Below are positions 20,728-49,200 of a stretch of DNA of 64,000 nucleotides, one piece after another. The stretch's first letter is position 1. Each line of letters opens with the position of its first letter. The stretch lies in NCBI GenBank assembly GCA_024682255.1, contig GCA_024682255.1_4716.1; one strand, given 5' to 3'. This DNA comes from a phage. A program made the translations under genes and the position numbers. The notes under the pieces are model-generated. The model had not been told where the DNA came from. It saw nothing but the letters and a program-made list of their open reading frames with translations, and did no database searches.

Positions 20728-23700
20728 TTACTTGTAGGCACCGCAATGGGCTTTGATGAGGAAAAGCACTGCTTGCATCGGTTTATTGAACTGTTGCCAT
20801 AACGTCAATGCAGGATGGAACAACCAATCTTCCAGGCCGAGAACAATACCGTAGTTAACGACATTATTAACGTCGTTCTCAATGTTGAGTTCGCTGTCCA
20901 GGAATTTATCGATTGAACGCAGGGTCTGCATGGCATTGTCAGCAATAAGCCAAGCTTCATGCGCTTCACGAGCCGCACGCAGCACTGCTTCCAGTTCGCT
21001 GATAGTAGCTACCGGTAATTCCTCACTGGTAAGGTCGTCAGAAACCGTAAACTGGCGATTGATACCGGTGTAGATCCACTGCATCAGTTTCGCTGCTTCC
21101 TCGTTCGGGTTGTTACGCGTTGTCGCATAAGTCGCGCTCACCTTCACGATGTGCGTTTCACCAAGATACGCTTTGGAACCAACGCCTTTACGATCGCTGT
21201 TTTTCCACGGTTGTACGGTAGCGACCATGAGCTTATCCCATTTCTGAATAGGAATACGCTTCAGACCAACAACCGATCCAGCGGATGTTTCGGACTGGTT
21301 GCTCTTCCGCACTTCGCTGAGTTCACGATCGATAGCAACGATTAATTCGCGTGTCATGTTACCAAGCATTTTGATTTCACCCAACGCAGCGATGAGCTTC
21401 TTCACGTCGGTAACAGGTTCACCACCGATGGTAAGATGACGGATGAAACGTTTCAGAATAATCCGTTCTGCTGCTGGGTTACCACGACGCGCTTTAGCCA
21501 ATGCTTGCTGCGTTTCGGCGAACAGCTTATCCCATGGAGCCGTAGCAGCAGTATAGTAACGATGATTGGTTTCGATCCAATTACCGATACGGTTGACCGC
21601 ACTCTTAACGGTATCCATGAATCCTTCCATCGCAATTTCGGTAGCTTCGACGTTACCCTGGAAGTTATCAGGACCGATCTCACGTGCCGCTACCAGAATA
21701 CCTTCCACAGCACTCACCGCATGGCGACCGATAGCCAGATTTCGCTGTGCTTCTTCAGCACGCTCAACGAATTCCACCACCGCAGGATCATCAACGATTT
21801 CCGCCTCAGCAACAACACGTGTACCGGCATCGCCTTCCAGCGTCTCGATCGTTACAACAGGATCGTTTTCACCAGCAACATCCTGGTACTCTTCCTGTTT
21901 AAGATCACCGTTATCTGCCGCAGCGATAGCGTTCATTATGCGGATGGTGACCTCACCAAGTTCTTGCGAAACGAATCCATAAACGGTGCAAGCAGTCGTT
22001 GCGAAGTTCATCAATGTGCGCGTACGCTGCGTGATGTAACGTGCGCCGGATTCGTTTTCCAGTTTATCGAGATCCCGGATTAACTGCTCGGCTGTTTCTT
22101 GAAGCTGTGTTACCGCCTTCAAGAGATCTTCGTCGAACAGTTTCTTCGATGCATCAACTAACATATCAGCATTGACGTTGGATGGTACCGTATCGCCTTG
22201 CTGTTTCATCTCGCTCAGCTCATCGCGGAACTTACGGATACCTTCTAAAGCGTCGTCAACGGAATATCCGAATGCCTTAACGCCCGCCATTCCGAGAGCT
22301 GCTTTCATATCGCCAGGATGTTGAACTTGCTCGCCTTCCTTGCTGTTCTTTAACTCATCGAAATATTGACGTGATGCGTCCGCAATACGCTTGCTGTCTT
22401 TTACTGCGTTAACGATCTTATCAACCGATTTCGAATCGTTTGCAAGTAACGTGTCAAGCTTGTTCCATGCAACATCAACTTTCTTCCCGTTGTTAGCCTC
22501 GCCCGGCGGTGGAAGCAGCTTCATCACTGGTGTTGTGCGTTGTTCTTTGGTGAGCTTACCAGCTTTCTCTTCGATTTTCTTTTTATTAACACCGAAAAGT
22601 TTTCTTAGGCGCGCCACGATGGCTTTTAAGAACTTCACAACCGCTTCGTAAACCGATTTCAGGATCTGTTTAAAGCGACCGGGTTTCTTGTCACCGTCTT
22701 CCAGATTAAGATCGCTGTTCAGTGCGACATCAAGCTGTTTGTACGATTCCATGATGTATTCGTCTTTGATTTCAGGACGAATCTCGAAGCTTTCCATCGG
22801 ACCTTCAGCCGGACGGAATTCCATTTTCAGTTCGCCTTGCAGGGTAGGGTCGACAATGGCGATCGCTTCACCCTGACCATCAGCGTTAAAGCGTTCAGCG
22901 TAACGAGTACGGCGAACAATAACACTCTTATCCCCATCAAGACGACGTACCACCATGGTACCAGGAATGTATGGTTGTTCTGTTTCAATGACGGTTACAT
23001 CTGCTTCACCTTCGCCGAGAATAACAGATGCACGCTGTTCAACAACAGGAACATCTAATACACCACGGGCTTCCAGCTCTTGATGAATTTCGAACGACTC
23101 TTGTTTCAGATCTTCATCTTCTTCGTTTTCGTCGTCTTCATCATCGTCACCTTTGGTGTTTTCATCACCTTTGGTGGCTGTGGTGTCGGTAGCATCAGCA
23201 TCAGCGTCGGTGTTGGTAGCGTCTTCGGTCGCAGGTTCGGTGGTGTTGTCCTCCGTGGACGACCCGTCAGTGTTATCGACGTCAACATCACCTTGCAGTT
23301 CTGTTTCCTGAGCAACTGCTTCGGCTTTCTGCTCGCCGGTATTACCGTCATTAGCGTCGACAACAGGTTGTTCGTCAGCGACGGTATCTTCAACCTTTTC
23401 TACTTTCTCCACGACACGTTTAATCACGGTGACTTTGATGGGTTCTTCCGTTGTTTTGGTTTCTGGCGTCACCTCGGCTGCCGCAGCCGCTGTTTCAGCA
23501 ACAGGTTCTGCTTTTTCCGGTTCGACGACATTACCTTTAACGCCTTCGGTGGTTTCTGCAGGTTGCGCTGCCTGTTCGATTTGTGCCGGATTGGTTGGAT
23601 CGATGGCGTTAGCTGCATCCTGAATCTTGTTCTTCAGGTTGTCGCGGTCGGCGTTAACGGTCGGGTCATTGGTCACTTTCGGTGCCGGTGTTTCGGTCGG

Positions 23701-24114
23701 TGCGTTTGCCGGATACGGGTTCTTCGGCTCTTCGCCAGGTGCGGTCGGTACCGCGATCAGAACGAACGGTTGAACATCGTTACCGTCTTCCATGGTCACG
23801 CCGCCGTTGCTCGGTGTGAAACGAATTCGCAAGCTACCATCAATAGGACGGGTCACAATAACAGCACGTACGACATCTTCACCGTTTTCATCCGTGCTAC
23901 GAATCACACGAACAGCGTCATCAACAGTAGCCCCTTCCTCGAGCGTATCTGATTCGATCGTCGCTTCGATGCTGTCTGGCCGTGCCGCTGTAGGTAATGC
24001 GATCACTTGCTCTTCTTTATCAGTAGAAAGCGTTGCTTTGACTTCGATAGGTGTATCGCCGCTTTCCAGGTTAAGATGCGACTTACGCATCAGATCAGCT
24101 AACGATTTTTTCAT
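20728..24114 (-). CDS. hypothetical large protein (1128 aa) with acidic low-complexity stretches
   Basis: ATG at 24114. Contains TKGDENTKGDDDEDDENEEDEDLKQ and Ala/Glu/Thr/Pro-rich segments. By position it leads the paralog cluster. Confidence 0.8.
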   Translation of the reverse strand: MKKSLADLMRKSHLNLESGDTPIEVKATLSTDKEEQVIALPTAARPDSIEATIESDTLEEGATVDDAVRVIRSTDENGEDVVRAVIVTRPIDGSLRIRFTPSNGGVTMEDGNDVQPFVLIAVPTAPGEEPKNPYPANAPTETPAPKVTNDPTVNADRDNLKNKIQDAANAIDPTNPAQIEQAAQPAETTEGVKGNVVEPEKAEPVAETAAAAAEVTPETKTTEEPIKVTVIKRVVEKVEKVEDTVADEQPVVDANDGNTGEQKAEAVAQETELQGDVDVDNTDGSSTEDNTTEPATEDATNTDADADATDTTATKGDENTKGDDDEDDENEEDEDLKQESFEIHQELEARGVLDVPVVEQRASVILGEGEADVTVIETEQPYIPGTMVVRRLDGDKSVIVRRTRYAERFNADGQGEAIAIVDPTLQGELKMEFRPAEGPMESFEIRPEIKDEYIMESYKQLDVALNSDLNLEDGDKKPGRFKQILKSVYEAVVKFLKAIVARLRKLFGVNKKKIEEKAGKLTKEQRTTPVMKLLPPPGEANNGKKVDVAWNKLDTLLANDSKSVDKIVNAVKDSKRIADASRQYFDELKNSKEGEQVQHPGDMKAALGMAGVKAFGYSVDDALEGIRKFRDELSEMKQQGDTVPSNVNADMLVDASKKLFDEDLLKAVTQLQETAEQLIRDLDKLENESGARYITQRTRTLMNFATTACTVYGFVSQELGEVTIRIMNAIAAADNGDLKQEEYQDVAGENDPVVTIETLEGDAGTRVVAEAEIVDDPAVVEFVERAEEAQRNLAIGRHAVSAVEGILVAAREIGPDNFQGNVEATEIAMEGFMDTVKSAVNRIGNWIETNHRYYTAATAPWDKLFAETQQALAKARRGNPAAERIILKRFIRHLTIGGEPVTDVKKLIAALGEIKMLGNMTRELIVAIDRELSEVRKSNQSETSAGSVVGLKRIPIQKWDKLMVATVQPWKNSDRKGVGSKAYLGETHIVKVSATYATTRNNPNEEAAKLMQWIYTGINRQFTVSDDLTSEELPVATISELEAVLRAAREAHEAWLIADNAMQTLRSIDKFLDSELNIENDVNNVVNYGIVLGLEDWLFHPALTLWQQFNKPMQAVLFLIKAHCGAYK

Positions 24115-24129
24115 AAAGCGTTATTCCTC

Positions 24130-25236
24130 TTAAAAGTAATATTTCAGCGCCTCGCGAGAGACATCAAGCATAGCCGCCGTTGAATTCGTAAAGAACTCGG
24201 CATAGCCCACAAGCGGCACCTTGATCCACGCGGTATACGCTGTAAGGTATCGAGAAAGGGCTACCATAGCATCATCAGAAGCAGTAGTAACTGACAACTG
24301 ACCTTGTTGACGATAAACGTCGTTAAGTTTTGCTTGTAGATTCCCTGCGATTTCGAGTAACTCGTTGGCGTACTTTTTACGATGGTAACTAACCAGCAAA
24401 TCAACACCCGTATTTACAGACTCGAGTAGCACACCAACTTGTTCTAATGTTGGCATTGTAACCACCATATCCCGTTCAACGGACGGTACATCCTGGACTT
24501 CAAACCGTGCGGATTGAATAGCAAGGGATTGTTGAATTGGACCAGAACCTGAGGCGGTAACCTGATCGAGTCGCAGCACACGGTTGCCCAGTAACGTTAC
24601 GTTGACGAGTCTCGATTCGTTCAGCGTACTGTAGACTTTATGCAATAACGTGTACGCATCACGGTTAATCACATCGATTAATGCGGTATCCGTCTGTTTT
24701 AAGATAATGTCGAGCGCTCTATCTAACGTATTAGCGAACTGCTTGAAATCATCACGGAATGACGAAGACAAGAGATATTCAGCGATTGCTAAATTCTGCT
24801 TGTATAACGTATTCCCGGTCGTGAAATCGAACCCAAAACTGTTTCCATACCGTAGGTGCGGAGCCAGCGTTGACGAAGCTTCGAAGCTTTGCGCGATGGG
24901 TTTACGACCAACGGCTTTTGTGTAATGACGACGGATGTTACTGAGTTCAAGTTGTAGTGCGCGACTACGATCGATAAACCGTGCGATAAACGCGGTGATG
25001 TTTCGCAACGTTGTCCAGATTGCATCGATGATAGCTTTGATGATTTTCATCGCAAGCTGATCGTACGATTCCATTGTGAGGAGATCAGCACTTTCTGTGG
25101 TATAACCGGTCGTCGGAATACCGCCTGCTTGCTGATAAATAAGCTGGTGAATTTGTCGTTGCGTTGCTGTCTCTGGCACAGGTAATGTTTTTAACAAGCT
25201 TAACGCTTGAATCTGTCCATCATAGGTCTGCAGCAT
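24130..25236 (-). CDS. hypothetical protein, member of a tandem paralog family (possible virion internal protein)
   Basis: The track's start at 25287 overlaps the upstream gene; the in-frame ATG at 25236 with GAGGAAA is used. Shares a hydrophobic helix-like core with the next three genes. Confidence 0.6.
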   Translation of the reverse strand: MLQTYDGQIQALSLLKTLPVPETATQRQIHQLIYQQAGGIPTTGYTTESADLLTMESYDQLAMKIIKAIIDAIWTTLRNITAFIARFIDRSRALQLELSNIRRHYTKAVGRKPIAQSFEASSTLAPHLRYGNSFGFDFTTGNTLYKQNLAIAEYLLSSSFRDDFKQFANTLDRALDIILKQTDTALIDVINRDAYTLLHKVYSTLNESRLVNVTLLGNRVLRLDQVTASGSGPIQQSLAIQSARFEVQDVPSVERDMVVTMPTLEQVGVLLESVNTGVDLLVSYHRKKYANELLEIAGNLQAKLNDVYRQQGQLSVTTASDDAMVALSRYLTAYTAWIKVPLVGYAEFFTNSTAAMLDVSREALKYYF

Positions 25237-26521
25237 TGCTGGTTTCCTCAAGTTCGAGATGCGCATCAAGATAATCATTAAGACCATCGATGACGTCGCA
25301 GACAGTTAACAGGAATCGGGCAAAAGCGACCGCCTGGAAGCCGACGACGTTACGCGCGATACCTACACGTTGAACGATAGCGGATGCGGCGGTATCGTTG
25401 TTGTCCATCTGTTGTAGCAAACGCTCGTAAGGTTGAATCCATTCGTCCTGGTCGGCAAGGCTTGCTTCAAGACAACGCTTAAATTCTAACTGTCGCAGCG
25501 TAGACCATAACGTACTTAATGCGTTGATGATTGCGTTGGTTCCGTCGATAACATCGTTTAACGGCAAGAAACGGAATCCGTCTTTTGCTGATTGGAAAGA
25601 TACGGCTTCCCACACAACGCTGAACTGCGTTCCTGTTGCGTCTTCGATGTTGTGTAATTTAAGATAGGAAGCACCAACAGGTACGTCAACGACCAGATCG
25701 TCTGTTCCGGTAGGCGTTAACGGCTTCTCGCATAACGCATCGTTGATGACTTCGAGGATATTCTCCCAACAGGCTTCGTTTTCTGCAGCGATACCTTCTT
25801 TGTTATCCGCTGATGGTGCTTTTAGTAGCTGCATTAATAACGGATCAAGTTGACGATGCCATGCTGCGAGGATTCCTGTGTTCGTTACGATGTTTTCTGC
25901 GGTTTGTCGTAAATCAGCAATACTGCTTACCGCACCGCCTTTCGGATGAAGATACCGCCAGTTATAAGGAAAGTTCTCCCAGAATGCGTTATCTTCATTA
26001 ACGTCGTATTCGGAAATATTTTTCAACGCAGTCGCTTTCTTTAATAACGGCTTCACCTGACGAACGAATCGACGATAACAACGATTGCAGATATCGATCG
26101 CGTAGCGGTACAATTCGTTCATGTAAAGCCATAACGCTCGGGTTGCTTCTTTTGCGGTCTTGTCAAAACTTTCCATGTTCAGGCTCATTCCGCTGGAAGT
26201 TTCCTCTTCCAGACCCTCGATGATGTGGTTTGGGTCCATTCCCATTCCAGCTGCTGCGGTCGATGCGATATGTTTGATGGTGCTGATATCGCGTTCTTCA
26301 ACTTCAGCCATGTTTGGGACAATATCCAGCCTGAGTTTATTTAATGTTTGAAGGTGTTGTTCACCTTCTTTCATCACCGTGTTTGTTTCGTCGATTGAGT
26401 GAAACTGATTCTCAATATTACCGGCATCGAGAATATTGCCAGCGATACCGAACGATTCTACAGGTTCATCATCAATCCCTTGAAACAACGATGTCATGGG
26501 TTGTTGTAACACGTTTTCCAT
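25220..26521 (-). CDS. hypothetical protein, tandem paralog family member (433 aa)
   Basis: ATG at 26521 with AGGAG upstream. Core ISTIKHIASTAAAGMGMD...ATRALWLYMNELYRYAIDI aligns with the neighbours. Confidence 0.8.
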   Translation of the reverse strand: MENVLQQPMTSLFQGIDDEPVESFGIAGNILDAGNIENQFHSIDETNTVMKEGEQHLQTLNKLRLDIVPNMAEVEERDISTIKHIASTAAAGMGMDPNHIIEGLEEETSSGMSLNMESFDKTAKEATRALWLYMNELYRYAIDICNRCYRRFVRQVKPLLKKATALKNISEYDVNEDNAFWENFPYNWRYLHPKGGAVSSIADLRQTAENIVTNTGILAAWHRQLDPLLMQLLKAPSADNKEGIAAENEACWENILEVINDALCEKPLTPTGTDDLVVDVPVGASYLKLHNIEDATGTQFSVVWEAVSFQSAKDGFRFLPLNDVIDGTNAIINALSTLWSTLRQLEFKRCLEASLADQDEWIQPYERLLQQMDNNDTAASAIVQRVGIARNVVGFQAVAFARFLLTVCDVIDGLNDYLDAHLELEETSNAADL

Positions 26522-26628
26522 TTGGGACTCCTACGTAGGAAAATCTTGGCGGGTGATCATGTCCGCCATTTACCTTCTGAACCGTTGATTCAGAAGTCAA
26601 AAGATAACCGGATACCAACGCCATAAAA

Positions 26629-26660
26629 CCTTCCTCCAACCCAACAGGGAAGGAGGAAGG
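26629..26660 (-). terminator. Hairpin of the dispersed family (ccttcctcc variant)
   Basis: Arms ccttcctcc / ggaggaagg carry compensatory changes relative to the core type. Confidence 0.55.
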
Positions 26661-26670
26661 GATATGGTGA

Positions 26671-27960
26671 TTATGCTTTTTCGGTTACAGCATCGAAATA
26701 TTTCGCTGCGGCAAATACAGCATCTGCATATTGACGGTTAGCAACACGGAGAATCTTAGCTGCTAATACCGCGCTCAATCGCGCCATTTCAGAAATGGCG
26801 CTTATATAAGGGCGAACGGTTTCACGATCTGCTTCCGGTAGATTGTCGAGCATACCGTCCCATTTAGTTTTAATTTTCATACCGTTTAGTTTAGCGGTAC
26901 GTTCGACAGTACTCGTTAAACTTTCTGTCTGGCGAAAATACGCGGGGTCAACGACACGAAACGCGTTAAGATACGAAGTCAGTGCGGCTTTCAATTCGTC
27001 GTCGTTATTGAAAATGTTCGCGTTTTCGATACTACCGGTCGCGGTTTCTTCAACTTCGATCTGAATATTCTTCACGAGCGCGCAGGCCTTAATGGTATCT
27101 TTCTCAGCCAAAAGAGCGTCAAGACCTTTAACAACATATCGTTTCCCACCGCTTTCTGGTATTTTGAGTCCTTTTAACGCAGGCTTGATGGCGTAAATAT
27201 AATCGTCCAGAATATCGGCAAGTGTCGTCAAATCGGTTAGTTTATTAACTTTCTTGTTAATGTCGTCAGTTTGGAGTAGTAAAAAAGCGGATGCTTGTGT
27301 GGATGCCGCTAACTGCTCAATATGTTTACGAACCTCCAACGCGTTAACCATTTTTGCGTTAGGGAACATGCTAATCATATTCCCGGTCGGTTTATTTAGT
27401 TGTTTGATGTGACGCTCGCCTTTATTTACAGCGGTTGCAACATCGGTAATTTTTTTATACGCTACCGCAAGGTTTTTGAAAAGCAGCTGAATCAGTTTAC
27501 ATAGCTGTTCAGCCATGTTCGCAATGATTACCCAAACTGCGTATAACGCTTGCGCAGCGCGTTCTTTAAAGCCTTCCAGCACAATAGCTTGCCCTTCCAC
27601 CAAACGATCGTCAGCTTGGAACATGTCTTCATCAGACATCCCCAGGTTAGCTGCTGACGTCGAAGCAATCTGACGGATAAGGGCGACGTCGCTCGCACGT
27701 GCTTCCGAGATCGTTGGTGCGATCATGTACGCTGTATCTTCCAGCGTTGCTGAGGTACGCACTGCAATTTCAGCCAGTTCGCTGGATTCATCGATCGTCT
27801 CGTCGGTGCGTCGAATCACCAACTCAACTTCGTCCTCTTCGATTTCCGCGTTAGGATCATTTTGCTCCGTCGGAATTGCCGCAAGAAGATCTTCGGCGCT
27901 GAGCAATGCGAGTTCGAATGCGTTTTTATTGACGTTATCGAAAAGAGAGATGCGGGCCAT
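26671..27960 (-). CDS. hypothetical protein, tandem paralog family member (429 aa)
   Basis: ATG at 27960 with AAGGAA upstream. Core TISEARASDVALIRQIASTSAANLGM...EGFKERAAQALYAVWVIIANMAEQL. Confidence 0.8.
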   Translation of the reverse strand: MARISLFDNVNKNAFELALLSAEDLLAAIPTEQNDPNAEIEEDEVELVIRRTDETIDESSELAEIAVRTSATLEDTAYMIAPTISEARASDVALIRQIASTSAANLGMSDEDMFQADDRLVEGQAIVLEGFKERAAQALYAVWVIIANMAEQLCKLIQLLFKNLAVAYKKITDVATAVNKGERHIKQLNKPTGNMISMFPNAKMVNALEVRKHIEQLAASTQASAFLLLQTDDINKKVNKLTDLTTLADILDDYIYAIKPALKGLKIPESGGKRYVVKGLDALLAEKDTIKACALVKNIQIEVEETATGSIENANIFNNDDELKAALTSYLNAFRVVDPAYFRQTESLTSTVERTAKLNGMKIKTKWDGMLDNLPEADRETVRPYISAISEMARLSAVLAAKILRVANRQYADAVFAAAKYFDAVTEKA

Positions 27961-27969
27961 GTTAGTTCC

Positions 27970-29286
27970 TTAACCTTTGGTATAAGCTTTAACGAGAGTG
28001 TTGATAAATGAAGTCAGTGCGCGAAGATACTGGTAAGCGAACTGGTTTTGAATACGGTTCTCTTTACCGCAAAGCAGAATCGCGCGCTTAACGAGCTTAG
28101 GATAGATCTCGATGTACGGTTGGTAGCTCGCATCAAAATTCTGCTCGTTGAAGCGTTTCATGGTGATTTCCTGGATGCGCTCCATGGTGCGAATTTTATT
28201 GCGAGAGAACATCTCAGAGAAAGCACGTCCGCGTTTTGTTACCATCAACAGATCTTTCGCGAACGTCAGTTGTCGAACGCTACGCAAATCGTCAGGTGTT
28301 GGTAGGACGTACGTTTCTGGATCGCTATCCCATTCAACATCTTCAACGACAATATCCAAGTCGAGGTAACGTTTAACCGCATCGATGATGTTGTCTTTTG
28401 ATGCGTCGAATTCTTTCAAGAAGACTGCGCCGTTGATGTAACGAATGCGTTTTCCGGAAACCGTTGGGGTGATAACGTCAGTACCTTCCACGGAACCGCG
28501 ATTTTCCAGTGTCGATTTGACAGCGTGCAAGAAAGACAGATAATCAACAGGAAGTTTTTCAACCTTATCTAAATGGAAGTCGATGATGTTTAATCCTAAC
28601 CCATCAATAACCGAATGACCATCCGATTTAAGGAACATCTGATTGAAGGTATCGATGTTGCTTTTCAGCGTGTCTACACCACCGACTTTGTTACGGTTAG
28701 GGAAAAGTGTCCGCCACTCCGCTTTAAACGCAACTTCTTTATTTTCCTCGTATTTGCCTTTAGGCATTTGTTCGAGGGCTGCAACGGCTTTCTGAAAATT
28801 GCGCGTCTCGTCGTAAACAAGACGGGTCAGCTTCTCGAAGGCTGCTGCCAAGGTCAGGGCAATATCAACAATGATATCCCAGATCTTTTTCATGGCTTTT
28901 ACAACGGTGTCCTTAAACCCTTCAACAACCAAAGCTTCTCCAACCTCAACACGATCGGTTGGCGTCAGCAATGCTTCGGAGGGTAGACCCAGAGCAATCG
29001 ACGCGGATTCTTGCACGTTACGAACTAATGCAACGTCACTGTAGTTAGCCGATTCGATAGTCGGAGCAACATCAAAACTGATTTCCCGTAATGCGGCAAC
29101 AGCAGGGAAAGCACGATCAAGTGCATCTTCATGTTCGTCGATTGTCGCCAAACGTAATTCAACGCCATCGGCATCGATGACATCGACTGTAGGCTCCACA
29201 GCAAGCGCCTCAGCAACAATAGGATCTTTTTCAAACGCCTCAAGGCTAATATCGCCTTGGGTCGCAAATAACGGTATGTGTACCAT
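27970..29286 (-). CDS. hypothetical protein, tandem paralog family member (about 438 aa)
   Basis: The track's start at 29310 is TTG; the ATG at 29284-29286 is used. Core TIESANYSDVALVRNVQESASIALGL...EGFKDTVVKAMKKIWDIIVDIALTL. Confidence 0.75.
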   Translation of the reverse strand: MVHIPLFATQGDISLEAFEKDPIVAEALAVEPTVDVIDADGVELRLATIDEHEDALDRAFPAVAALREISFDVAPTIESANYSDVALVRNVQESASIALGLPSEALLTPTDRVEVGEALVVEGFKDTVVKAMKKIWDIIVDIALTLAAAFEKLTRLVYDETRNFQKAVAALEQMPKGKYEENKEVAFKAEWRTLFPNRNKVGGVDTLKSNIDTFNQMFLKSDGHSVIDGLGLNIIDFHLDKVEKLPVDYLSFLHAVKSTLENRGSVEGTDVITPTVSGKRIRYINGAVFLKEFDASKDNIIDAVKRYLDLDIVVEDVEWDSDPETYVLPTPDDLRSVRQLTFAKDLLMVTKRGRAFSEMFSRNKIRTMERIQEITMKRFNEQNFDASYQPYIEIYPKLVKRAILLCGKENRIQNQFAYQYLRALTSFINTLVKAYTKG

Positions 29287-29334
29287 GTGTTGTCTCCAGT
29301 AATGATTCAAAAGATAAACCTGGACGGCATAGAA

Positions 29335-29366
29335 CCCTCTCCCAACCCGTCAGGGAAGGGAGAGGG
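29335..29366 (-). terminator. Hairpin of the dispersed family (core type, loop cccgtcaggg)
   Basis: ccctctccc / gggagaggg arms, preceded by catag on the plus strand. Confidence 0.6.
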
Positions 29367-29388
29367 AATATGTCAGTTTATTAACTGA

Positions 29389-30717
29389 TTACTGCTGTGC
29401 TGCGTCAGCCGGTTTCTCAGCCGCCTGGCCGCCGTACTCTTTCAGCATTTTAGCAACACCATCCAGGACAGCGTTACCTGCCTGAACACCGTATTTCATC
29501 AGACCAGTCTGCGGGTTCACGTAGCAGGAACGTGCGTCTTTCAGTGCAGACAGTACAGCTTGAACACGCTGTTTTTCCTGAGCGGAAACTTCGCCTTTCT
29601 TAGACAGATCGGCTTCCATATCGTCACCGAATTTAACAGCGTCTTTGAAGCCCTGGGATTTCTTACCGATGTTGCCTTTCAGCGCCAGCAGTTTGTCAGC
29701 CAGTACTTCAACACCGCTAACCGCAGCGGCCAGCTGATTCGGAGATAGAACTTTAGCCTCTTGCTGCAGCGCAGTAATGGCGTTAGCACCGCGTTCCCAG
29801 GTTACTTTCCCATCTGTGGTTTTGAATCCCCAATCGTTCGGACCTTTAACGTCAGCGATTGCTGGTGCGTTCAGTTTATCAGTGTATTCGGTGTGGGACT
29901 TAGATTTGACTAACCCAACGAATTTATCAGCACGATCGTCAGCAGCCTTCATTGCTTTCTCGAAGGTGTCAGTGATTTTAGTCGCCGCGGTAACCAGATC
30001 AAGGCCGCCGATATAACCTGTAGCGCTACCCAGTAAAACTTTATCGTTCTTCGGAGTACCTTTACGTTTGGCGATCATTTCTTTCAGTTTAGCAGCACGT
30101 GCTTTCAGTTTGGTCGCGCCGTCGAAGATACGATCCATGAACTTCACGAAGGTTTCCCAGGAAGTTTTCAGGAAGTTCTTGATGGTTGCCCACAGTTTCT
30201 GCCACCATTTTTGTTCTTCCAGGAAGATCATGTTGGTCGCATCGTAACGGGAAGCGGAACCACCGAAGCTTTCGAAGGACGGCATGGTTTCCGGCATTTT
30301 GAAACCGATAGTACCACACAGACGTTTCAGATTACGCATGTGTTCCTGAGCGGTCTGTGCAGACATACCGCCGTCTTTCAGGTAGCTTTCGGTTGCAACA
30401 ACGGTTTCCGTCAGTTCGTCCATGGCTTCATCCATGGCTTCTGCGGTTTCGTCGTCTTTTGCAATTTCGATAACAACAGCATCAACCTGCTCGATATCAC
30501 CACGAACTTCGATAGCCAGTTCGGTTTCAGCTGCGGTATCTTCAGCGATTTCAGCACGTTCGGTCAGCTCAGCCACAACGGTTTCATCCGCTGGTGCAGC
30601 ATCAGCTGCCGGTTCTGCTTCAACGGTTGCCGCTGCATCCGGATCGATCTCAGCAGCCAGTTGAACCAGCTGTGCGTTAGATGGATTTGCGACAAGACGA
30701 TCAAAAATAGAAGGCAT
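29389..30717 (-). CDS. hypothetical highly expressed protein (442 aa), possibly related to the paralog family
   Basis: ATG at 30717 with AAGGAAA upstream; strong codon bias; acidic Ala/Glu-rich N-terminal region. Confidence 0.75.
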   Translation of the reverse strand: MPSIFDRLVANPSNAQLVQLAAEIDPDAAATVEAEPAADAAPADETVVAELTERAEIAEDTAAETELAIEVRGDIEQVDAVVIEIAKDDETAEAMDEAMDELTETVVATESYLKDGGMSAQTAQEHMRNLKRLCGTIGFKMPETMPSFESFGGSASRYDATNMIFLEEQKWWQKLWATIKNFLKTSWETFVKFMDRIFDGATKLKARAAKLKEMIAKRKGTPKNDKVLLGSATGYIGGLDLVTAATKITDTFEKAMKAADDRADKFVGLVKSKSHTEYTDKLNAPAIADVKGPNDWGFKTTDGKVTWERGANAITALQQEAKVLSPNQLAAAVSGVEVLADKLLALKGNIGKKSQGFKDAVKFGDDMEADLSKKGEVSAQEKQRVQAVLSALKDARSCYVNPQTGLMKYGVQAGNAVLDGVAKMLKEYGGQAAEKPADAAQQ

Positions 30718-30781: not shown

Positions 30782-31312
30782 TTAAAAGCCCTTAAAACCC
30801 GGTGCCATAGGTTGCCCAAACACCGCATTCAAAGTACATATGATGTCTTGGATGCCATTGTCCCAATGGAGCCAAGTACGCACCATCTCTTCGTCTGACA
30901 ACGTGATATAACTCATAAGTTTACCGCTGCTTTCCAGACGTTGGTGCGAACTTAACGACTGACGATCTGACCAGTTATCAATCAATTGACCCGCAATCTG
31001 AACGTTCGTGTCTCGTCTACCCGTGTGAATGAACCGTAGTGTATCACGGATAAACTCCAGACTGGTGAAGTTCAGATTTGGGTTATGGCTGTTCATTTCC
31101 ACCCAATCGGTGATAGGGTACATCAAACGATAAAGGGTAGAAAGAACCTGACGTTCATATTTCCAGTCATCGAGAGGAGTACCGTCGACCAGACGCTGAT
31201 ACAAACTAACAACGTCACGATCGTAGTTCTCCTGACGTTTTACACCGTTAACCGGGAATCCAAAGAACCCGGTACCGTATAACGTTAAAGGGACGTCACG
31301 AAGTGCATTCAT
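30782..31312 (-). CDS. hypothetical protein (176 aa)
   Basis: ATG at 31312 overlapping the upstream stop. Confidence 0.7.
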   Translation of the reverse strand: MNALRDVPLTLYGTGFFGFPVNGVKRQENYDRDVVSLYQRLVDGTPLDDWKYERQVLSTLYRLMYPITDWVEMNSHNPNLNFTSLEFIRDTLRFIHTGRRDTNVQIAGQLIDNWSDRQSLSSHQRLESSGKLMSYITLSDEEMVRTWLHWDNGIQDIICTLNAVFGQPMAPGFKGF

Positions 31313-32211
31313 ACAGCCGCCTCTTCTTGTCGTTTAATATCATAACGAAGTTTCTTCAGTCGCTCTTCGTGATATTCGATCTGCTGCTGGATTTTTGGAT
31401 CGTTGCCTGCATTCTGCTGTTTTTGCTTCAGTGACAAAATCCAATATTCCAACGCTTGGGCTTCTTCTTTGGCTGCTTGTAACGACGCTTCTTCACGTTC
31501 GCTGCGCCAGATACGGAAACGGTAAACAAGCGTGTCGGTTACATCACCGTTAGCCCACGAGCCCAGACGCATCGGGTCGGTATTACCCGCATTGTACAGT
31601 CCGTTACCAACACCGTCTTCATCAGAAACCACAACATCCGGGATTTTATCCAACCCCGCAAGGATCTGTTGTTTCTGTCCGCACAGCACTTCGGTGGCGA
31701 CAGCAAAACCGTACATGTTGGCGGTCAGGTAAGCGATCTCGTTTTTAGTGAAGAATTCACCAAGCGCTTTATCACCACCCGGCATGCTTTCGCAGATGAC
31801 TGCTGCACGAAGCAGTGTGCGAGAATAGCTAACGTAGAAGCCCAGTGCTTCAACAAGACGTACCAGAGCGGCTTCTTTGAAACTTAGACCGTCGGCAGCA
31901 ACATCGATTTCCAGGTTTTTGTTAACACGTTTAACGATTTCTGGAATCAGGTCAACAGCATTACGTAGCGCTAAGTGAACGTTTTCTACCCAGCTTCCAG
32001 AGCGAACGCGGGTTAAACGCTGGTGCAGATCCTTATCAGCAAGTTTCCATAAGGCGCTTTCACCCTTTTGGAGAAGCGAAGCGGATGTCTCGTAGTAAGG
32101 AATCGCGGTGTTGTTGATTTCGTCACGGATTGATTCAAGTGCGTCAGCAACACCGGTGCGTTTAAAAAGCGGCTTCAAACCGCGAATGAATTCTTTAAAA
32201 TCGATTGCCAT
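31309..32211 (-). CDS. hypothetical protein (300 aa)
   Basis: ATG at 32211. Confidence 0.75.
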   Translation of the reverse strand: MAIDFKEFIRGLKPLFKRTGVADALESIRDEINNTAIPYYETSASLLQKGESALWKLADKDLHQRLTRVRSGSWVENVHLALRNAVDLIPEIVKRVNKNLEIDVAADGLSFKEAALVRLVEALGFYVSYSRTLLRAAVICESMPGGDKALGEFFTKNEIAYLTANMYGFAVATEVLCGQKQQILAGLDKIPDVVVSDEDGVGNGLYNAGNTDPMRLGSWANGDVTDTLVYRFRIWRSEREEASLQAAKEEAQALEYWILSLKQKQQNAGNDPKIQQQIEYHEERLKKLRYDIKRQEEAAV

Positions 32212-32250
32212 GAGTGAGCACCTATGCTATTTCGAAACAGGTTGCGTGTA

Positions 32251-33357
32251 TTAACGAATCTGTGGGACGTTTCCGGTACGGAGCGCCTGGAGGATCGTCA
32301 GAAGATCGGAACCCGAGGTTGACGAACTGTTGGATTTTTCCAGTTGCTTGAAGCTTACGGTGGTCCCTTGATCCAAGCTGTGGAAATAGAAGGTCACCAT
32401 CTCTTCAGCTTCGTCGATGATGATCAACTGCATTGCGAGGGCTTCAGCCATGACTTTCTGACGTGTGGTATAGTCAGATAAACGACGTCCGATCTTACGC
32501 TCGATGGCTTCCTGGTTAGCCTTAGAGATGATATAGGTGGAGGCGATGGCTCCAGAAGAAGGGATCTTTGTGCTCGCTGCAGCTTTTGCGGCATTGATGC
32601 GTGCAGCATTAACAGCCTTGCGGATACCCTCTTTATCCATGCGTGAGATTTGTTTGTGTTCGCGAACCAGATCGCTAAGCAGGATCATATCGCTCCAGAA
32701 AGACAGCTCACCGGCCATCATGCGATGCCAACGTGCTCGCCAGGTGTTCTGTGGACCACCGATCGCTAAAATCGACGCAAGCACTTCCGCTGGTGAACTT
32801 GCGATACGCATGCTGATATTCAGCGGCATTTTCATCGTTGCTTGACCATCGGTCAGCGTCACGGTTAAGAACTTGCCGGTGACCGCGTTCGCATCTTTGT
32901 TCAGCAATTCGATCGCAGCGTCGCTGGCTCCAACATCGGCGATATTTTTTTGTTTCCCCTGCAGGTTGAATCCTTTGTCATCAAGGAAAACAAGGCTTTT
33001 GCTATCCGCGCTTTCCAGCGCTAATTTAACAGCCTTATCCATCAGGTTAACGTTACGGTTTGGGTTCACACGACCCAGCGTTTTATCGACACTGATATTA
33101 CCCACCTGCATGATGGTGTTCAACGCCAGTAAATAGAACCCGGTATACATGTTTTCAGCGGTGCGCATGCAGTTGCCTAACGCATTGCGTGCGTCGCTAT
33201 AATACAACTCACGTTCAAAGATCAACGGCGCGATAACGCGTGAAGGTTGTGAGAGTTCAACCAGCGAACCTGGTTGGATAAGTTTATTAACTTCGTAGAC
33301 TTTAGCGATACCGGACGCAACAACGTTAACAGCGTCGGCAATTTCTGATGCTACCAT
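32251..33357 (-). CDS. hypothetical protein (368 aa)
   Basis: ATG at 33357 with AAGGAT upstream; divergent from the plus-strand gene at 33392. Confidence 0.8.
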   Translation of the reverse strand: MVASEIADAVNVVASGIAKVYEVNKLIQPGSLVELSQPSRVIAPLIFERELYYSDARNALGNCMRTAENMYTGFYLLALNTIMQVGNISVDKTLGRVNPNRNVNLMDKAVKLALESADSKSLVFLDDKGFNLQGKQKNIADVGASDAAIELLNKDANAVTGKFLTVTLTDGQATMKMPLNISMRIASSPAEVLASILAIGGPQNTWRARWHRMMAGELSFWSDMILLSDLVREHKQISRMDKEGIRKAVNAARINAAKAAASTKIPSSGAIASTYIISKANQEAIERKIGRRLSDYTTRQKVMAEALAMQLIIIDEAEEMVTFYFHSLDQGTTVSFKQLEKSNSSSTSGSDLLTILQALRTGNVPQIR

Positions 33358-37656: not shown

Positions 37657-40600
37657 TTATCTTACGTTATTGCTATTCTGCTGTTCGCTGAACCAACCAT
37701 ACACCTTGAGATCGGTACCGTATTTCAATGCGATATACGCATTCAGCGCAGCACAGAACAAAGACGCGAATGCCCATATCAGCGAAGGATCAACATCTTC
37801 CGTTACCACCTGGAGAGTATTATCCGGTTCCCATGATGGAGAACTGTCCATGAACGTTGCGTACCATCCCCGCCGTTGTTCTTCGGTGGTAAAGTCGCTA
37901 TGAGGTTCCAACGCTTCTTTTGCCAGACGTCGATATTCGAACATATGCGTTGCTAAAGCCGATGAGTTACCAGATTCGCCTTCATAGTTCGGATCCACCG
38001 CATAACAGAGTTCTGTTGAATCTAACAAAGCAACCGCCTGTGTGATGCTGTCGGCAGTACCTGCACCATAGAGCTCGATAGACCGCGAAAGCTTTTCACA
38101 GAACGTATTTAACGCGGCAGGATTGGACACCTGAAGGTCAAGGCCTAATGTCCACGGATAGTTACTGAACACACCCGTGAACCGCGGCATAACACCCAAC
38201 AGATGCTGACCGATTACGGCACGGTTATAAACAGCCCGGTTATAGACTTGAAACGCAGCCTCCAAGGCTTGGTTATAATGACGACGAAGTTCATCACGTG
38301 AGTTGCGGAATCTGTTTGCCGCAAGACTCGTGGCTGCGACGCTACAAACATCGTAATTGGTGGACGAAAGCACAACCTCGTTAAGATCGAACGCTTCCTG
38401 TTTCAATGTTCCGCTAACAGCCGCCGCTTCGCTGTTCGCTTTATCGACAACAGTACTCAAGGCGTTGATGTAACGTTTAGCTCGGACTTCCAGCCACTGT
38501 GCGATGCCGAGAATATCCACCGCAGCTTTAGCAAGATCGCGTGCATTCACGATTTCGTTCTTCAACGCCCCTAAACCTTTATTCTCAGGCGAAGAGGCTT
38601 GTTGGCGAATCATGCTGTTCAACATGGTAAGCAGATTATCCAACTCATGTCCACTGACCTTGTTACGCGCATCGGTAATCGGCCCTTGCAGGAATTTACG
38701 GCAACCGTCGTTGTATCGAATCAGTTTATCCACATCGATAGATTCGTTCGTGGATTCCTTGAACTGATCCTTCAATTCTTCACGGTAGTCGTGGATTTCA
38801 CTTGCGAGATTGTCGATAGTGATACCATCATGTCCAAGAAGAACTTTATCGAAGTTACCTTTCTCGAATGCCAGAGCAAGACCTTCACGAATCTTAGCGA
38901 GTTTATCTTGATCGAGTTCACGCCCGTTCGATAGCTCTTTCACTTCCGAACTGATTAGTGCCGCAACGTTACCCAGATTGTCGGTAACGCCTTTGAACGC
39001 TCCCGACCAGATCGTTCCTGCTTCAGCGTATTTCGCAATGGTCTGAATACCGACGGTGTGCAACGACGCTAAACGTTTCTTCGTGCCTTCGGTAAGCAGA
39101 GCGTCTTTAGCTCGTGTAAGCTGACTGTTATTGGCTTCCGCCTGCTGAATCGCTGCTTTCGCACTTCCATTACGCCAGCTCTTAACCAGCCAATCGACCA
39201 AACGTTTTAGAATGTTGACGGTGTATTCCATCGTCCGCCGTAACGTTTCCCACGCGCTTTCTGCGGTATAGATGCCGTACCCTTCCATCTTCAACGCTTT
39301 CAAGCTTGTTTGACGTGCCAACCATTCTACCGTTGCAGAACAAACGTTTACTAATGCTTCTAGGTAGTTGTAATAGACGTCTGTTGCAGCCGTTTCGTTG
39401 AGCTTTGAATGCAGATAAAACTGATCGTAAAGTTCGTCGTCATCGCCGAAGGCATCGTAGTTCCACAGCTCAGTATCGCAGCCTGTGCCGCAGAAGACGT
39501 CTGCTGTTGTAAACTCTTTAAGCGCTTTAGCCGCATCATTCGTCAGGAATTTACCTGTTTCAACTACATCATCGACGTTAAGCTTGGGGAGTTCATCGGT
39601 AACTGGCTCTTGCAACATTAACGTGTTGAAGAATGCGCTGTACTTGTATCCGAGCCATTTTGGATAACTGCTTTCAGGTATCGTAGACAACGGCTTGATT
39701 TTCTTGGCTTCAGCCAGCGTGTCTTTTGCAACCTGATATTGGTTTTCCCCAGCCTTGATGCGTCGTAACGCTTTTTCTTCCAACTGCTGGAGTTTGGCAT
39801 GCCGTGCTTGTGCTGGAGCTTCAACGAGTTTTTGTACCGACTGCATTGCTGAAATCGCTTCTTTTAATACGATCATCGGCATACGAACTTTGCCGTCGTC
39901 AAAACTAAGAGCACGAGCGACACGCTTACTTACGACAGGTTTGTCGTGGATATTTCGTTCCACCCACGATTTGTTTGCGTAAGTTTGAGCGATTTGCTGT
40001 TGGATATTTTCAAGGTATTTCCAGCTTTTGGATGCCTTGCTATCCAAAAGCGGATTCGGTCCCTTCTTATCGAAAAGTTTCAGAATCGGATCAAAGAAAC
40101 CTTCCTGTACAAGATCGATACGTGTATATCCGTCAGCCGCTTCGATTTCTTCTTGGGTTTTATCCCAAAGCTCTTCGCTACGGATAGCAGTAGCGGTTTC
40201 AGATACCGACATAACAAGCTCAGCAACAGCTTCAGCGTAAGTCAGTACGGTACGCACACATTGCACTAACATGCGCTGGTAAACGATACGTGCGTTTTGC
40301 AGACGTGCGATAACCGCTAAATATCCGATGTTGTCAAGATTTTCATCGGCTTGAGCGGATTCAACGCGTTCTAACAGTTGTTTAACTAGCGCCGCTGTTT
40401 CTGGGTAATCGTTCACGACGTCACGCATGATTCGTGATGCGAAAACCGCGGTACCTAAAACGGTGAGAAGTGTTTTACCGTCCCATTCTTTCGGTGCTGC
40501 TACCGATTCAGTAGGGATGAGATTTCCCGCTTGGTCGAAGTACGGCATAAGGACATTGATATCAGTCGACGGAACAGCAGTAACTGCGTTGTACTCTTCA

Positions 40601-41262
40601 TCCGCGCCATCGTTGCCAGACGGCTGTAAAGCAAGTGCTTGCTCAAGGATTTTGCGGTCAACGGCATAAAGCGCCGACAGAGCTTGCGTTACCGCAACCA
40701 GATCAACAATCGGTGACCAGAGCTGTGCGAGCTTACCTTCGTATTTCTGTACAGCGATAGCAAGGTCTTCTTTTACGTCTGGATGATCGATCAAACCACC
40801 CAACGTTTCATGGATGGCAGAAAAACGTTCAGAATGTGCCTGAGTCAATGCGGTAAAATCGTCAACGTAAGACGCATTTTCTTCAAGGCGTGTAAGTTCC
40901 TGCTCCAGAAGATCTTTTACCTGCGTGGTAGAGGCGTTTCTCAACTGTTCCCCGATAATCGCGATGGCTTTATCGACAACACGGCAGGCTTCATTGAAAC
41001 CGGTTGTTGAAGGTAACTCGGTCCATAATGCCAGCGGCTTACCTTCCATTGCGTCAGGAAGGGAATATGACAGCATTGTTAGTTGTTGACGTGATACCTG
41101 TTTGTCACGATGCAATGTTTCTTTCAACGCCAGAAGCTCATCAAGACCCACACTGCTAGGGATCGTGGGATGTGATACAGCGTTGATATTTTCTGTCAAT
41201 GACTCAAGAACCAATAAACCATTTTCAGCGGAAGATAACCCTGCTTTAAGGTATTTGTTCAT
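37657..41262 (-). CDS. hypothetical very large protein (1201 aa), probably virion-associated
   Basis: ATG at 41262 with GGAG upstream; predicted mostly helical. No catalytic motif recognised. Confidence 0.8.
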   Translation of the reverse strand: MNKYLKAGLSSAENGLLVLESLTENINAVSHPTIPSSVGLDELLALKETLHRDKQVSRQQLTMLSYSLPDAMEGKPLALWTELPSTTGFNEACRVVDKAIAIIGEQLRNASTTQVKDLLEQELTRLEENASYVDDFTALTQAHSERFSAIHETLGGLIDHPDVKEDLAIAVQKYEGKLAQLWSPIVDLVAVTQALSALYAVDRKILEQALALQPSGNDGADEEYNAVTAVPSTDINVLMPYFDQAGNLIPTESVAAPKEWDGKTLLTVLGTAVFASRIMRDVVNDYPETAALVKQLLERVESAQADENLDNIGYLAVIARLQNARIVYQRMLVQCVRTVLTYAEAVAELVMSVSETATAIRSEELWDKTQEEIEAADGYTRIDLVQEGFFDPILKLFDKKGPNPLLDSKASKSWKYLENIQQQIAQTYANKSWVERNIHDKPVVSKRVARALSFDDGKVRMPMIVLKEAISAMQSVQKLVEAPAQARHAKLQQLEEKALRRIKAGENQYQVAKDTLAEAKKIKPLSTIPESSYPKWLGYKYSAFFNTLMLQEPVTDELPKLNVDDVVETGKFLTNDAAKALKEFTTADVFCGTGCDTELWNYDAFGDDDELYDQFYLHSKLNETAATDVYYNYLEALVNVCSATVEWLARQTSLKALKMEGYGIYTAESAWETLRRTMEYTVNILKRLVDWLVKSWRNGSAKAAIQQAEANNSQLTRAKDALLTEGTKKRLASLHTVGIQTIAKYAEAGTIWSGAFKGVTDNLGNVAALISSEVKELSNGRELDQDKLAKIREGLALAFEKGNFDKVLLGHDGITIDNLASEIHDYREELKDQFKESTNESIDVDKLIRYNDGCRKFLQGPITDARNKVSGHELDNLLTMLNSMIRQQASSPENKGLGALKNEIVNARDLAKAAVDILGIAQWLEVRAKRYINALSTVVDKANSEAAAVSGTLKQEAFDLNEVVLSSTNYDVCSVAATSLAANRFRNSRDELRRHYNQALEAAFQVYNRAVYNRAVIGQHLLGVMPRFTGVFSNYPWTLGLDLQVSNPAALNTFCEKLSRSIELYGAGTADSITQAVALLDSTELCYAVDPNYEGESGNSSALATHMFEYRRLAKEALEPHSDFTTEEQRRGWYATFMDSSPSWEPDNTLQVVTEDVDPSLIWAFASLFCAALNAYIALKYGTDLKVYGWFSEQQNSNNVR

Positions 41263-41277
41263 AAAACACTCCGTTGA

Positions 41278-41308
41278 CCTAGGTGGAGGTTATTGGCCTC
41301 CACCTAGG
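41278..41308 (-). terminator. Hairpin with 12-bp perfect stem
   Basis: cctaggtggagg-ttattgg-cctccacctagg, between the stop at 41344 and the next start at 41262. Confidence 0.55.
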
Positions 41309-47640: not shown

Positions 47641-47707
47641 GAAATAAATCGGTTAAGTTTTACCTCCTTTCTCGATAAGTATGATACTAAGCGAGCAAGG
47701 AGTTGAT

Positions 47708-48814: not shown

Positions 48815-48899
48815 CCGATTTTAGGTCCCGGTGGGGATAACGCCCCCACCGGATTCCCGTTAATTGCTGGAACCCCCTAAAGCCTTTCGACCACAGCGG

Positions 48900-49200
48900 A
48901 TTCTGAAAAGAAAAACGCGATGGTTAGAAAACAGAAAGGATGTTCGTAAGGAAGCGATAAATGGGCAATCAGCAGCGAAGCTTCTAAGGGCGTGCGTTAG
49001 CAATAAGACCTAAGAAGAACGTTCAACGACTATCCGGTCGCGCGGAGTAAGGGACAAGCGTCCCCAAACACGGGAGGGGTGCGAAAGCATTCCATGATAT
49101 AGTCTGCTCCTAAGTGAAAGCTTAGGCGGGTGGCACACACCGGCATAAGAGTTGCGTCTTATGTGGACAATGGCTTGACATCTCCTCGTCCTACCCGAAT
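48900..49200 (+). ncRNA. putative group I intron catalytic core (boundaries approximate)
   Basis: Non-coding, GC-rich stretch after the endonuclease gene. P7-like pairing GACUA (49028-49032) with UAGUC (49100-49104), a candidate P8 hairpin gggac-aagc-gtccc (49051-49064) between them, and a P9-like hairpin cctaag-tgaaag-cttagg (49109-49126) directly after, in the canonical order. Confidence 0.45.

Follow-up and report, generated by a model that had tools for sequence, protein, structure and literature searches.

A probable array of six PF12699-type internal head protein genes in a Goslar-like jumbo phage

The present analysis deals with a cluster of six neighbouring genes located on a 64,000-nucleotide stretch of phage DNA (NCBI GenBank assembly GCA_024682255.1, contig GCA_024682255.1_4716.1), which is referred to hereafter as the window. 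Very probably, these genes represent an array of six diverged tandem paralogs coding for jumbo-phage internal head or ejection proteins of the Pfam family PF12699, and are the orthologs of gp58 to gp53 of the Escherichia phage vB_EcoM_Goslar (NC_048170), a nucleus-forming jumbo phage (chimallivirus). Proteins of this family are among the most abundant virion components of the nucleus-forming jumbo phages, with thousands of copies each. An internal head protein array of this type is already known, both as a curated Pfam family and through the Goslar orthologs that have been characterised by proteomics and imaging; the family has been correctly re-identified here from the raw sequence and no new kind of element is added. 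With respect to the published work on Goslar, the new aspects consist of the predicted cleavage sites, the faster evolution of the array and the occurrence of a hypervariable cassette.

The gene array and its relation to phage Goslar

The five small genes of the array have been labelled A, B, C, D and E, and the gene coding for an acidic protein of 1128 amino acid residues (aa) has been labelled big (Table 1). All six genes are located on the minus strand and follow one another in the transcription order E, D, C, B, A, big. The 7-kb region shares 95.6% nucleotide identity with Goslar, and no other record of the phage collection searched matches this region. The source phage is a close relative of the chimallivirus Goslar that belongs to a distinct Goslar-like lineage. 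The boundaries of the open reading frames (ORFs) A to E coincide with the annotated coding sequences of Goslar gp054 to gp058, and big corresponds to gp053. The order and the lengths of the six genes are equal in both phages and the encoded proteins are 92-98% identical to their Goslar orthologs, the lowest values being those of the gp53 ortholog (92.6%) and the gp58 ortholog (92.3%). The five ORFs delineated by the initial annotation between positions 24,130 and 30,717 are all present on the minus strand, with ends that agree with the Goslar coding sequences. The five genes are thus real, and the cluster of "four to five" tandem paralogs it described is partly confirmed; big had been missed as a member, and the array comprises six genes which extend down to position 20,728.

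Table 1. Coordinates of the array genes and of associated features in the window (↓, proposed site of cleavage).
Feature	Positions	Strand	Description	Proposed cut
A	24130-25236	-	368 aa; ortholog of Goslar gp54	TME56↓SYDQL
B	25220-26521	-	433 aa; ortholog of Goslar gp55	NME117↓SFDKT
C	26671-27960	-	429 aa; ortholog of Goslar gp56	VLE129↓GFKER
D	27970-29286	-	438 aa; ortholog of Goslar gp57	VVE122↓GFKDT
E	29389-30717	-	442 aa; ortholog of Goslar gp58	after E149 or E167
big	20728-24114	-	1128 aa, acidic; ortholog of Goslar gp53	AME830↓GFMDT
C-terminal PF12699 domain of big	20731-21624	-	residues 831-1128; begins directly after the proposed cut	
Hypervariable cassette of big	22009-22527	-	residues 530-702; inside a predicted helical domain (~508-735)	
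F, G, H	30782-33357	-	upstream context, transcribed in the same direction as the array; phiKZ gp91-like (vertex-binding), gp90-like and gp89-like	
Hairpin 3' of the stop codon of E	29335-29366	-	followed by TTCTATG; conserved behind the E orthologs of further Goslar-like loci	
Hairpin 3' of the stop codon of C	26629-26660	-	second copy of the same repeated element	
Further hairpin	26547-26568		matches an annotated terminator of Goslar; also found in the hairpin scan	

Probable assignment to the PF12699 family

The Pfam family PF12699 (phiKZ_IP, "phiKZ-like phage internal head proteins") is defined by a curated gathering cut-off of 27 bits. Protein E, whose first ~120 residues are acidic and whose remainder is basic, matches almost the whole profile with 70.3 bits and also matches phrog_5750 and phrog_2497, both labelled "internal head protein". 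No Pfam match was obtained with big scanned over its full length, and its C-terminal 339 residues (790-1128), scanned alone, reach 28.0 bits, above the cut-off. Protein D comes slightly under the cut-off (24.4 bits, E-value 2e-5), as does A, the shortest member, which is devoid of a long acidic N-terminal region and aligns through residues 53-359 with profile positions 89-384 (20.4 bits, E-value 3.4e-4). Accordingly, four of the six array proteins match PF12699 at E-values of 3.4e-4 or lower, and the Glu residue of the motif discussed below falls at a consistent position of the profile. Weak precomputed PF12699 matches are also recorded for A and D orthologs from other Goslar-like contigs, one of these A orthologs being 96% identical.

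A profile built from B, C and D retrieved 10 proteins in an exhaustive HMMER search among 1.84 billion representatives. One protein related to this profile with an E-value of 1e-28 (P0037) passes the PF12699 cut-off by itself, with 28.6 bits. As to distant homologs, tblastn against the phage collection returned Goslar and one weak match only, and a word-indexed search with A and B yielded only orthologs at 86% identity or more. No solved structure was found when searched for by sequence. For B, AlphaFold2 yielded a low-confidence model, with a predicted local distance difference test score (pLDDT) of 52 and a predicted template modelling score (pTM) of 0.52. Searched with Foldseek against BFVD, this model gave 59 matches at E-values of 1e-3 or lower, aligned over almost the full length. 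Among the 50 matches listed, all those with a name are phage proteins. Several carry the annotation "virion structural protein" or "internal head protein", including proteins so annotated from the phiKZ-like phages 201phi2-1, PhiPA3, PhiEaH1, Ea35-70, Phabio and Psa21.

The genomic environment points in the same direction. Upstream of the array, F matches the Pfam family PhiKZ_gp91 (1e-46) and, by phmmer, phiKZ gp91 itself (7e-14), and phmmer also relates G to gp90 (1.5e-13) and H to gp89 (4e-35). Downstream of big, beyond the small gp052 ortholog, the second gene (gp051 ortholog) matches phiKZ gp98 (phmmer, 9e-33). The gene order corresponds one-to-one to that of phiKZ gp89-gp101, and the order in the Salmonella phage SPN3US is alike, with two internal head protein genes. 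The array occupies the slot, located after the homologs of gp89-gp91 and before that of gp98, where phiKZ encodes gp92-gp97.

Similarity within the array and the shared motif

At the pairwise level, significant similarity is limited to three of the six proteins. Using BLASTP, C and D are related with an E-value of 1e-17, B and D with 1.5e-9, and B and C with 5e-9, the similarity being restricted to approximately the N-terminal 200 residues; hhalign comparisons of ortholog alignments from seven genomes gave 6e-14 for C-D, 7e-7 for B-C and 2e-5 for B-D. The paralog cluster is thus real, with B, C and D as its directly recognisable members. For all hhalign comparisons involving A, E or parts of big, P values spread from ~0.01 to 0.9, no better than those of unrelated controls; for A and E they range from 0.056 to 0.72, and negative controls behave similarly (e.g., 0.015 for B against G60). 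When the B/C/D profile was run against all 322 ORFs of the window, the next-ranked proteins after B, C and D themselves were big, A and E, with non-significant E-values of 0.02-1.9 and with alignments that all fall on the helix following the motif. No further family member was detected elsewhere in the window, either with this profile or with a profile of the phiKZ and SPN3US members.

The initial annotation had described a recognisable core shared by A to D, had added E on the basis of its size, composition and codon bias, and had proposed formal alignment as a check. The shared core holds for B, C and D, both in sequence alignments and in profile-profile comparisons, but not for A, which displays no significant pairwise similarity, and A and E both stay at the level of the controls. 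Proteins A and E, which show no significant pairwise similarity to the others, join the family solely via the PF12699 profile, A with a score under the cut-off. The motif originally written EGFK...A..A....W.II occurs literally in C alone, and there with two residues instead of three after EGFK (EGFK..A..A....W.II), but looser versions occur in D (EGFKDT...W.II), B (ESFDKT...W), A (ESYDQL...W) and big (EGFMDT...W).

Several results weigh against a common origin of the six genes as internal head proteins. Neither A nor E resembles the other array proteins significantly by BLASTP, with the B/C/D hidden Markov model or by hhalign on ortholog profiles. Neither B nor C has a Pfam match of its own, so that their membership is either transitive or dependent on a model of low confidence. 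A profile built solely from phiKZ gp92-96 and SPN3US gp53 and gp54 recovered E alone at a significant level. Finally, inner-body density is absent from the micrographs and asymmetric reconstructions of Goslar (10.64898/2026.04.21.720040); for this reason the label "inner body" should not be transferred to the array, whereas the designation "internal/ejected head protein" is supported. In spite of these points, the assignment to PF12699 retains a high probability, and the phiKZ-like, head-internal character that the initial annotation had put forward is supported by the Pfam and PHROG matches, the P0037 link, the structural matches of the B model, the synteny with phiKZ and the virion mass spectrometry of the Goslar orthologs.

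Virion presence of the Goslar orthologs and injection of gp58

In Goslar, gp53 and gp58 possess PF12699 domains and gp54-gp57 adopt the same fold according to AlphaFold 3 (preprint 10.64898/2026.04.21.720040). The same study reports the detection of all six proteins by liquid chromatography-tandem mass spectrometry of purified virions, with approximate copy numbers per virion of 330 for gp53, 70 for gp54, 50 for gp55, 60 for gp56, 50 for gp57 and 2150 for gp58. The analysis of purified virions by mass spectrometry, which had been suggested as a check for the window proteins, is consequently available in published form for orthologs that are 92-98% identical, all six of which reside in virions.

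A fusion of gp58 to sfGFP is packaged and injected, stays with the early phage infection (EPI) vesicle and is found later beside the phage nucleus (PMC10541120). Among the neighbours, Goslar gp59, the ortholog of F, belongs to the vertex-binding complex, and the orthologs of G and H, gp60 and gp61, are packaged and injected. Injection has been demonstrated for the E ortholog gp58, and gp53-gp57 are to be regarded as candidate ejection proteins only.

Proposed maturation cleavage

According to the mechanism proposed here, each precursor would consist of a strongly acidic N-terminal region followed by a helix-rich domain of ~300 aa. As is the case for SPN3US and phiKZ, the N-terminal region would direct the precursor to the prohead, and the prohead protease would then cut behind a conserved Glu located where the two parts meet, namely within the "E↓GFK" motif noticed in the initial annotation. 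The resulting mature proteins, 30-36 kDa in size and mostly basic, would sit with the packaged DNA and exit the capsid together with it.

This proposal is built on the processing described for related phages. In SPN3US, propeptides of 125 and 137 residues are removed from gp53 and gp54, respectively, by the prohead protease (PMC5694885, PMC10052503), the cuts being AQE125↓GWKETLK in gp53 and ARE137↓SLWDDIK in gp54 (PMC10052503). In phiKZ gp93 and gp162, proteolysis splits N-terminal capsid-binding segments from helix-rich domains (PMC11297242). The cleavage motif reads A-x-E in SPN3US and S/A/G-x-E in phiKZ, and the SPN3US authors have pointed out that the cleavage logos are more variable in related phages. 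When established family members are aligned, an [SA]-x-E site occupies a common column where the helical domain starts in 7/7 sequences. On the PF12699 profile, the SPN3US sites fall at positions ~83-97, compared to ~89-95 for the Glu of the motif in D, in A and in the C-terminus of big. The processing known from SPN3US and phiKZ, the matching profile position of the motif Glu and the shared [SA]-x-E column together lead to the cut sites listed in Table 1.

The mature products predicted from these sites comprise 275-316 aa, with masses of 30-36 kDa and isoelectric points (pI) of 8.6-9.5, except for B, whose product would be acidic (pI 4.69). The predicted propeptides have pI values of 4.05-4.7. 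In seven Goslar-like genomes, the residues close to the cleavage site are identical in 7/7 for B-E and big, and A alone varies at the cut (M or L at P2, Y or H at P2').

The residue at P3 speaks on the other side. It is non-canonical at most of the proposed sites, being V in both C and D, N in B and T in A, and canonical only in big (AME) and at the alternative site SFE149 of E; among the proposed sites, five of the six proteins have V, N, T or F at P3. Moreover, the Goslar preprint does not address proteolytic processing (10.64898/2026.04.21.720040). The non-canonical P3 residues also contrast with the candidate major capsid protein of the window (6702-8924, minus strand; 740 aa, 25% identical to phiKZ gp120), which carries a canonical site, GCE150↓S, homologous to E163↓N of phiKZ gp120 and to the cut after residue 130 of SPN3US gp75. 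For this capsid protein, a propeptide of ~150 residues is predicted from the sequence.

Taken together, the removal of a propeptide from the array proteins is likely, and the exact sites proposed have a slightly better than even chance of being correct. A wider reading, in which "[LVMI]-E↓[GS]-[FY]" would be the maturation site of all six proteins despite their P3 residues, and the cassette of the gp53-type protein a possible host-facing determinant of specificity or anti-defence that enters the cell upon injection, is advanced as a tentative suggestion that probably goes too far. Should cleavage occur, the virion would hold mostly basic C-terminal domains of ~30-36 kDa, and the copy numbers published so far would be underestimates, since full-length masses served for their normalisation.

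The 1128-residue protein and its hypervariable cassette

The protein big counts as the sixth member of the family on the basis of its C-terminal domain, which is 97-100% conserved among 108 orthologs. Using phmmer, residues 823-920 align with residues 130-229 of SPN3US gp54, i.e., from the cleavage site of the latter onwards (domain E-value 0.004).

A different pattern is displayed by residues 530-702. Among the 108 Goslar-like orthologs, at least six groups of alleles can be distinguished for this cassette at the 85% level, identities going down to 22%, whereas each of the flanking segments forms a single group at 84% identity or more, except for the acidic low-complexity residues 281-340. 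The window phage and Goslar carry different alleles. The region is modelled by AlphaFold2 as confidently helical (pLDDT 75-93), and a search of BFVD with the model of the cassette domain returned nothing at E-values of 1e-3 or lower. Its dN (nonsynonymous) and dS (synonymous) substitution values amount to 0.19-0.36 and 1.4-1.7, respectively. The joint elevation of dN and dS suggests a recombination of old alleles, and a protein present in some 330 copies in Goslar might carry a modular cassette that recombines between near-invariant flanks. In this respect, the gp53-type cassette could possibly guide the search for the interaction partners of the injected proteins.

A second PF12699 module was also considered within residues 445-830 of big, a region starting with "IME↓SYKQ" and possessing a confident AlphaFold2 helical core, but is not supported, since neither a BFVD match at E-values of 1e-3 or lower nor an hhalign signal was obtained.

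In addition, the N-terminal half of big contains a repeated "ESFE↓I" sequence, in KQESFE342↓IHQE and PMESFE444↓IRPE. Both copies fit S-x-E protease sites and come after similar β-rich stretches (VVRAVIVTRP...RIRF and MVVRRL...IVRRTRY), and big may be cut into several pieces.

Evolution of the array

Substitution rates were estimated from a sample consisting of the window phage, Goslar and five additional contigs of the Goslar-like type. In the array, the six genes show dN/dS ratios of 0.05-0.16, i.e., 2-10 times those of the flanking structural genes, most of which fall between 0.014 and 0.037, so that the array evolves more rapidly than its structural neighbours. Positive selection was considered and not retained: no window of 60 codons exceeds a dN/dS of 0.74, with reliable values peaking at ~0.25. 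Two segments stand out by a simultaneous rise of dN and dS, namely residues 530-702 of big and residues 181-360 of C. The latter segment makes up the C-terminal half of C and differs strongly from one Goslar-like phage to another, with dN of 0.17-0.22 and dS of 1-2.4. Since dN and dS rise together, these segments point to the recombination of old alleles and not to demonstrated positive selection.

Alternative functions

The array proteins, or at least their N-terminal parts, could act mainly as capsid-bound cement instead of free internal or ejected cargo, an interpretation which is held to be rather unlikely. The cleaved N-terminal segments would then staple capsomers on the capsid's inner face, like phiKZ gp93 (residues 14-84) and gp162N, and the sequence conserved in B, C and D would reflect binding to the capsid protein. 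The phiKZ capsid structure, in which the N-terminal fragments of gp93 and gp162, cleaved from the helix-rich domains, lie between hexamers (PMC11297242), argues for such a role, and so do the restriction of the B/C/D similarity to the N-terminal ~200 residues and an unassigned helical density near the Goslar vertex-binding complex, described as "reminiscent of the PF12699 fold" (10.64898/2026.04.21.720040). However, the Goslar atomic model does not contain any PF12699 protein and gp58 is demonstrably injected (PMC10541120). In addition, a cement role of the N-terminal segments complements the ejection of the C-terminal domains and does not exclude it.

Another view, which is possible but not favoured, is that the proteins function after injection as early-infection effectors, by building or organising the EPI vesicle, protecting the DNA or counteracting host defences, their fast-evolving and cassette-like parts resulting from host adaptation. 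The retention of gp58 at the EPI vesicle and its subsequent location beside the phage nucleus (PMC10541120), the injection of the neighbouring gp60 and gp61, the 2-10-fold higher dN/dS of the array compared to flanking structural genes, and the discrete divergent alleles of big and of the C-terminal half of C are all consistent with this view. Yet no window reaches a dN/dS above 1 and the joint rise of dN and dS points to old-allele recombination and not to demonstrated positive selection; the authors of the Goslar preprint themselves call the function unknown (10.64898/2026.04.21.720040).

Finally, the idea that no true paralog family exists, the genes coding for unrelated helix-rich proteins of like size which share the motif by chance or composition, is highly improbable and already largely refuted: although most pairs (A, E and big against the others) are as non-significant as negative controls, B, C and D are significantly related by BLASTP and hhalign, PF12699 is matched by four of the six proteins with the motif Glu consistently placed, the B model retrieves proteins of this family by structure, and the synteny with phiKZ extends to how many members there are, to their order and even to their sizes.

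Intergenic hairpins and other features of the window

The hairpins located after E and C belong to a repeated intergenic element of ~50 nucleotides, cATAT-TCCCTCTCC-CTT-CCC-TKNN-GGG-TT-GGGAGAGGG-TT(C)TATG, which occurs in seven copies in the window (11379, 14743, 26636, 29342, 37623, 53512 and 60680, all on the minus strand) versus 0.05 expected by chance. Its 12-bp stem pairs in 100% of the copies, with three compensated pairs, and no Rfam entry corresponds to it. Where checked (C, E and the ORF 37660-41289), the element lies directly 3' of the stop codon, and the copies located after the E and C orthologs are conserved in other Goslar-like contigs. The element may function as a terminator or attenuator, possibly associated with a late-promoter-like TATG, and could have a bearing on why the E ortholog is so much more abundant than the orthologs of D and C.

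The ORF 37660-41289 (minus strand) encodes 1210 aa versus 930 aa annotated for Goslar gp064. Only its C-terminal 544 residues align to gp064 (98.7% identity), and its N-terminal part either differs from Goslar or has been annotated otherwise there. On the plus strand, a group I intron was identified at 48801-49126 (Rfam RF00028, 68.7 bits versus a cut-off of 50). It is directly preceded by an ORF of 377 aa (47681-48814, plus strand) in which an HNH-like motif was recognised by reading the sequence. Upstream of the latter, another ORF of 499 aa (46141-47640, plus strand) resembles, by the same kind of reading, the exonuclease portion at the N-terminus of a DNA polymerase (FDIETD). This arrangement suggests that an intron with a homing endonuclease interrupts a polymerase gene.

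Public data commonly contain Goslar-like contigs with sizes of ~235-250 kb (e.g., loci L002-L007 and proteins P0006, P0015, P0029, P0030 and P0045). They originate from metagenome assemblies and from assemblies whose labels name isolates of Salmonella enterica, Shigella and E. coli, which suggests that enterobacterial isolates often carry Goslar-like phages or are sequenced together with them.

Comparison with known systems

The internal proteins IPI-III and Alt of phage T4 resemble the array proteins in being packaged into the head, carrying an N-terminal targeting sequence which the prohead protease cuts off after a Glu, and being injected with the DNA (PMC5694885). However, they share neither homology nor the PF12699 helical fold with the array, and their targeting sequences comprise 10-20 residues compared to ~55-170 here.

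The resemblance to phiKZ lies in the organisation of the locus. In phiKZ, gp92-96 (440, 435, 505, 547 and 371 aa) precede the large gp97 (816 aa), just as E, D, C, B and A (442, 438, 429, 433 and 368 aa) precede the 1128-aa gene. Protein A is the positional counterpart of phiKZ gp96, each being the last and shortest of the small members and both matching the profile at ~89-386 only, and big and gp97 are positional counterparts, neither of which gives a full-length Pfam match. Differences are nevertheless obvious, as no significant pairwise sequence similarity links the array to gp92-gp97, and phiKZ possesses two extra members elsewhere in its genome (gp162 and gp163), with none found elsewhere in the window. 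Several phiKZ members reach ~100-200 copies, whereas one dominant member is found in Goslar, and the inner body of phiKZ is visible by low-resolution electron microscopy and in bubblegrams, whereas none was seen in Goslar (10.64898/2026.04.21.720040).

The ejection proteins gp53 and gp54 of SPN3US ("paralog family A") differ from the array by comprising two paralogs only, each present in more than 600 copies, and by a strict A-x-E motif which most of the sites proposed here do not match at P3. Like the array, they belong to PF12699 and occupy the syntenic position. Their acidic propeptides are removed to give basic mature proteins of ~31 kDa, and the site context E↓GWKE is close to the E↓GFKE found here. 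The mature forms of gp53 and gp54 (300 and 282 aa, 31.5 and 30.3 kDa, pI 9.2 and 9.5, respectively) come close to the products predicted for the array.

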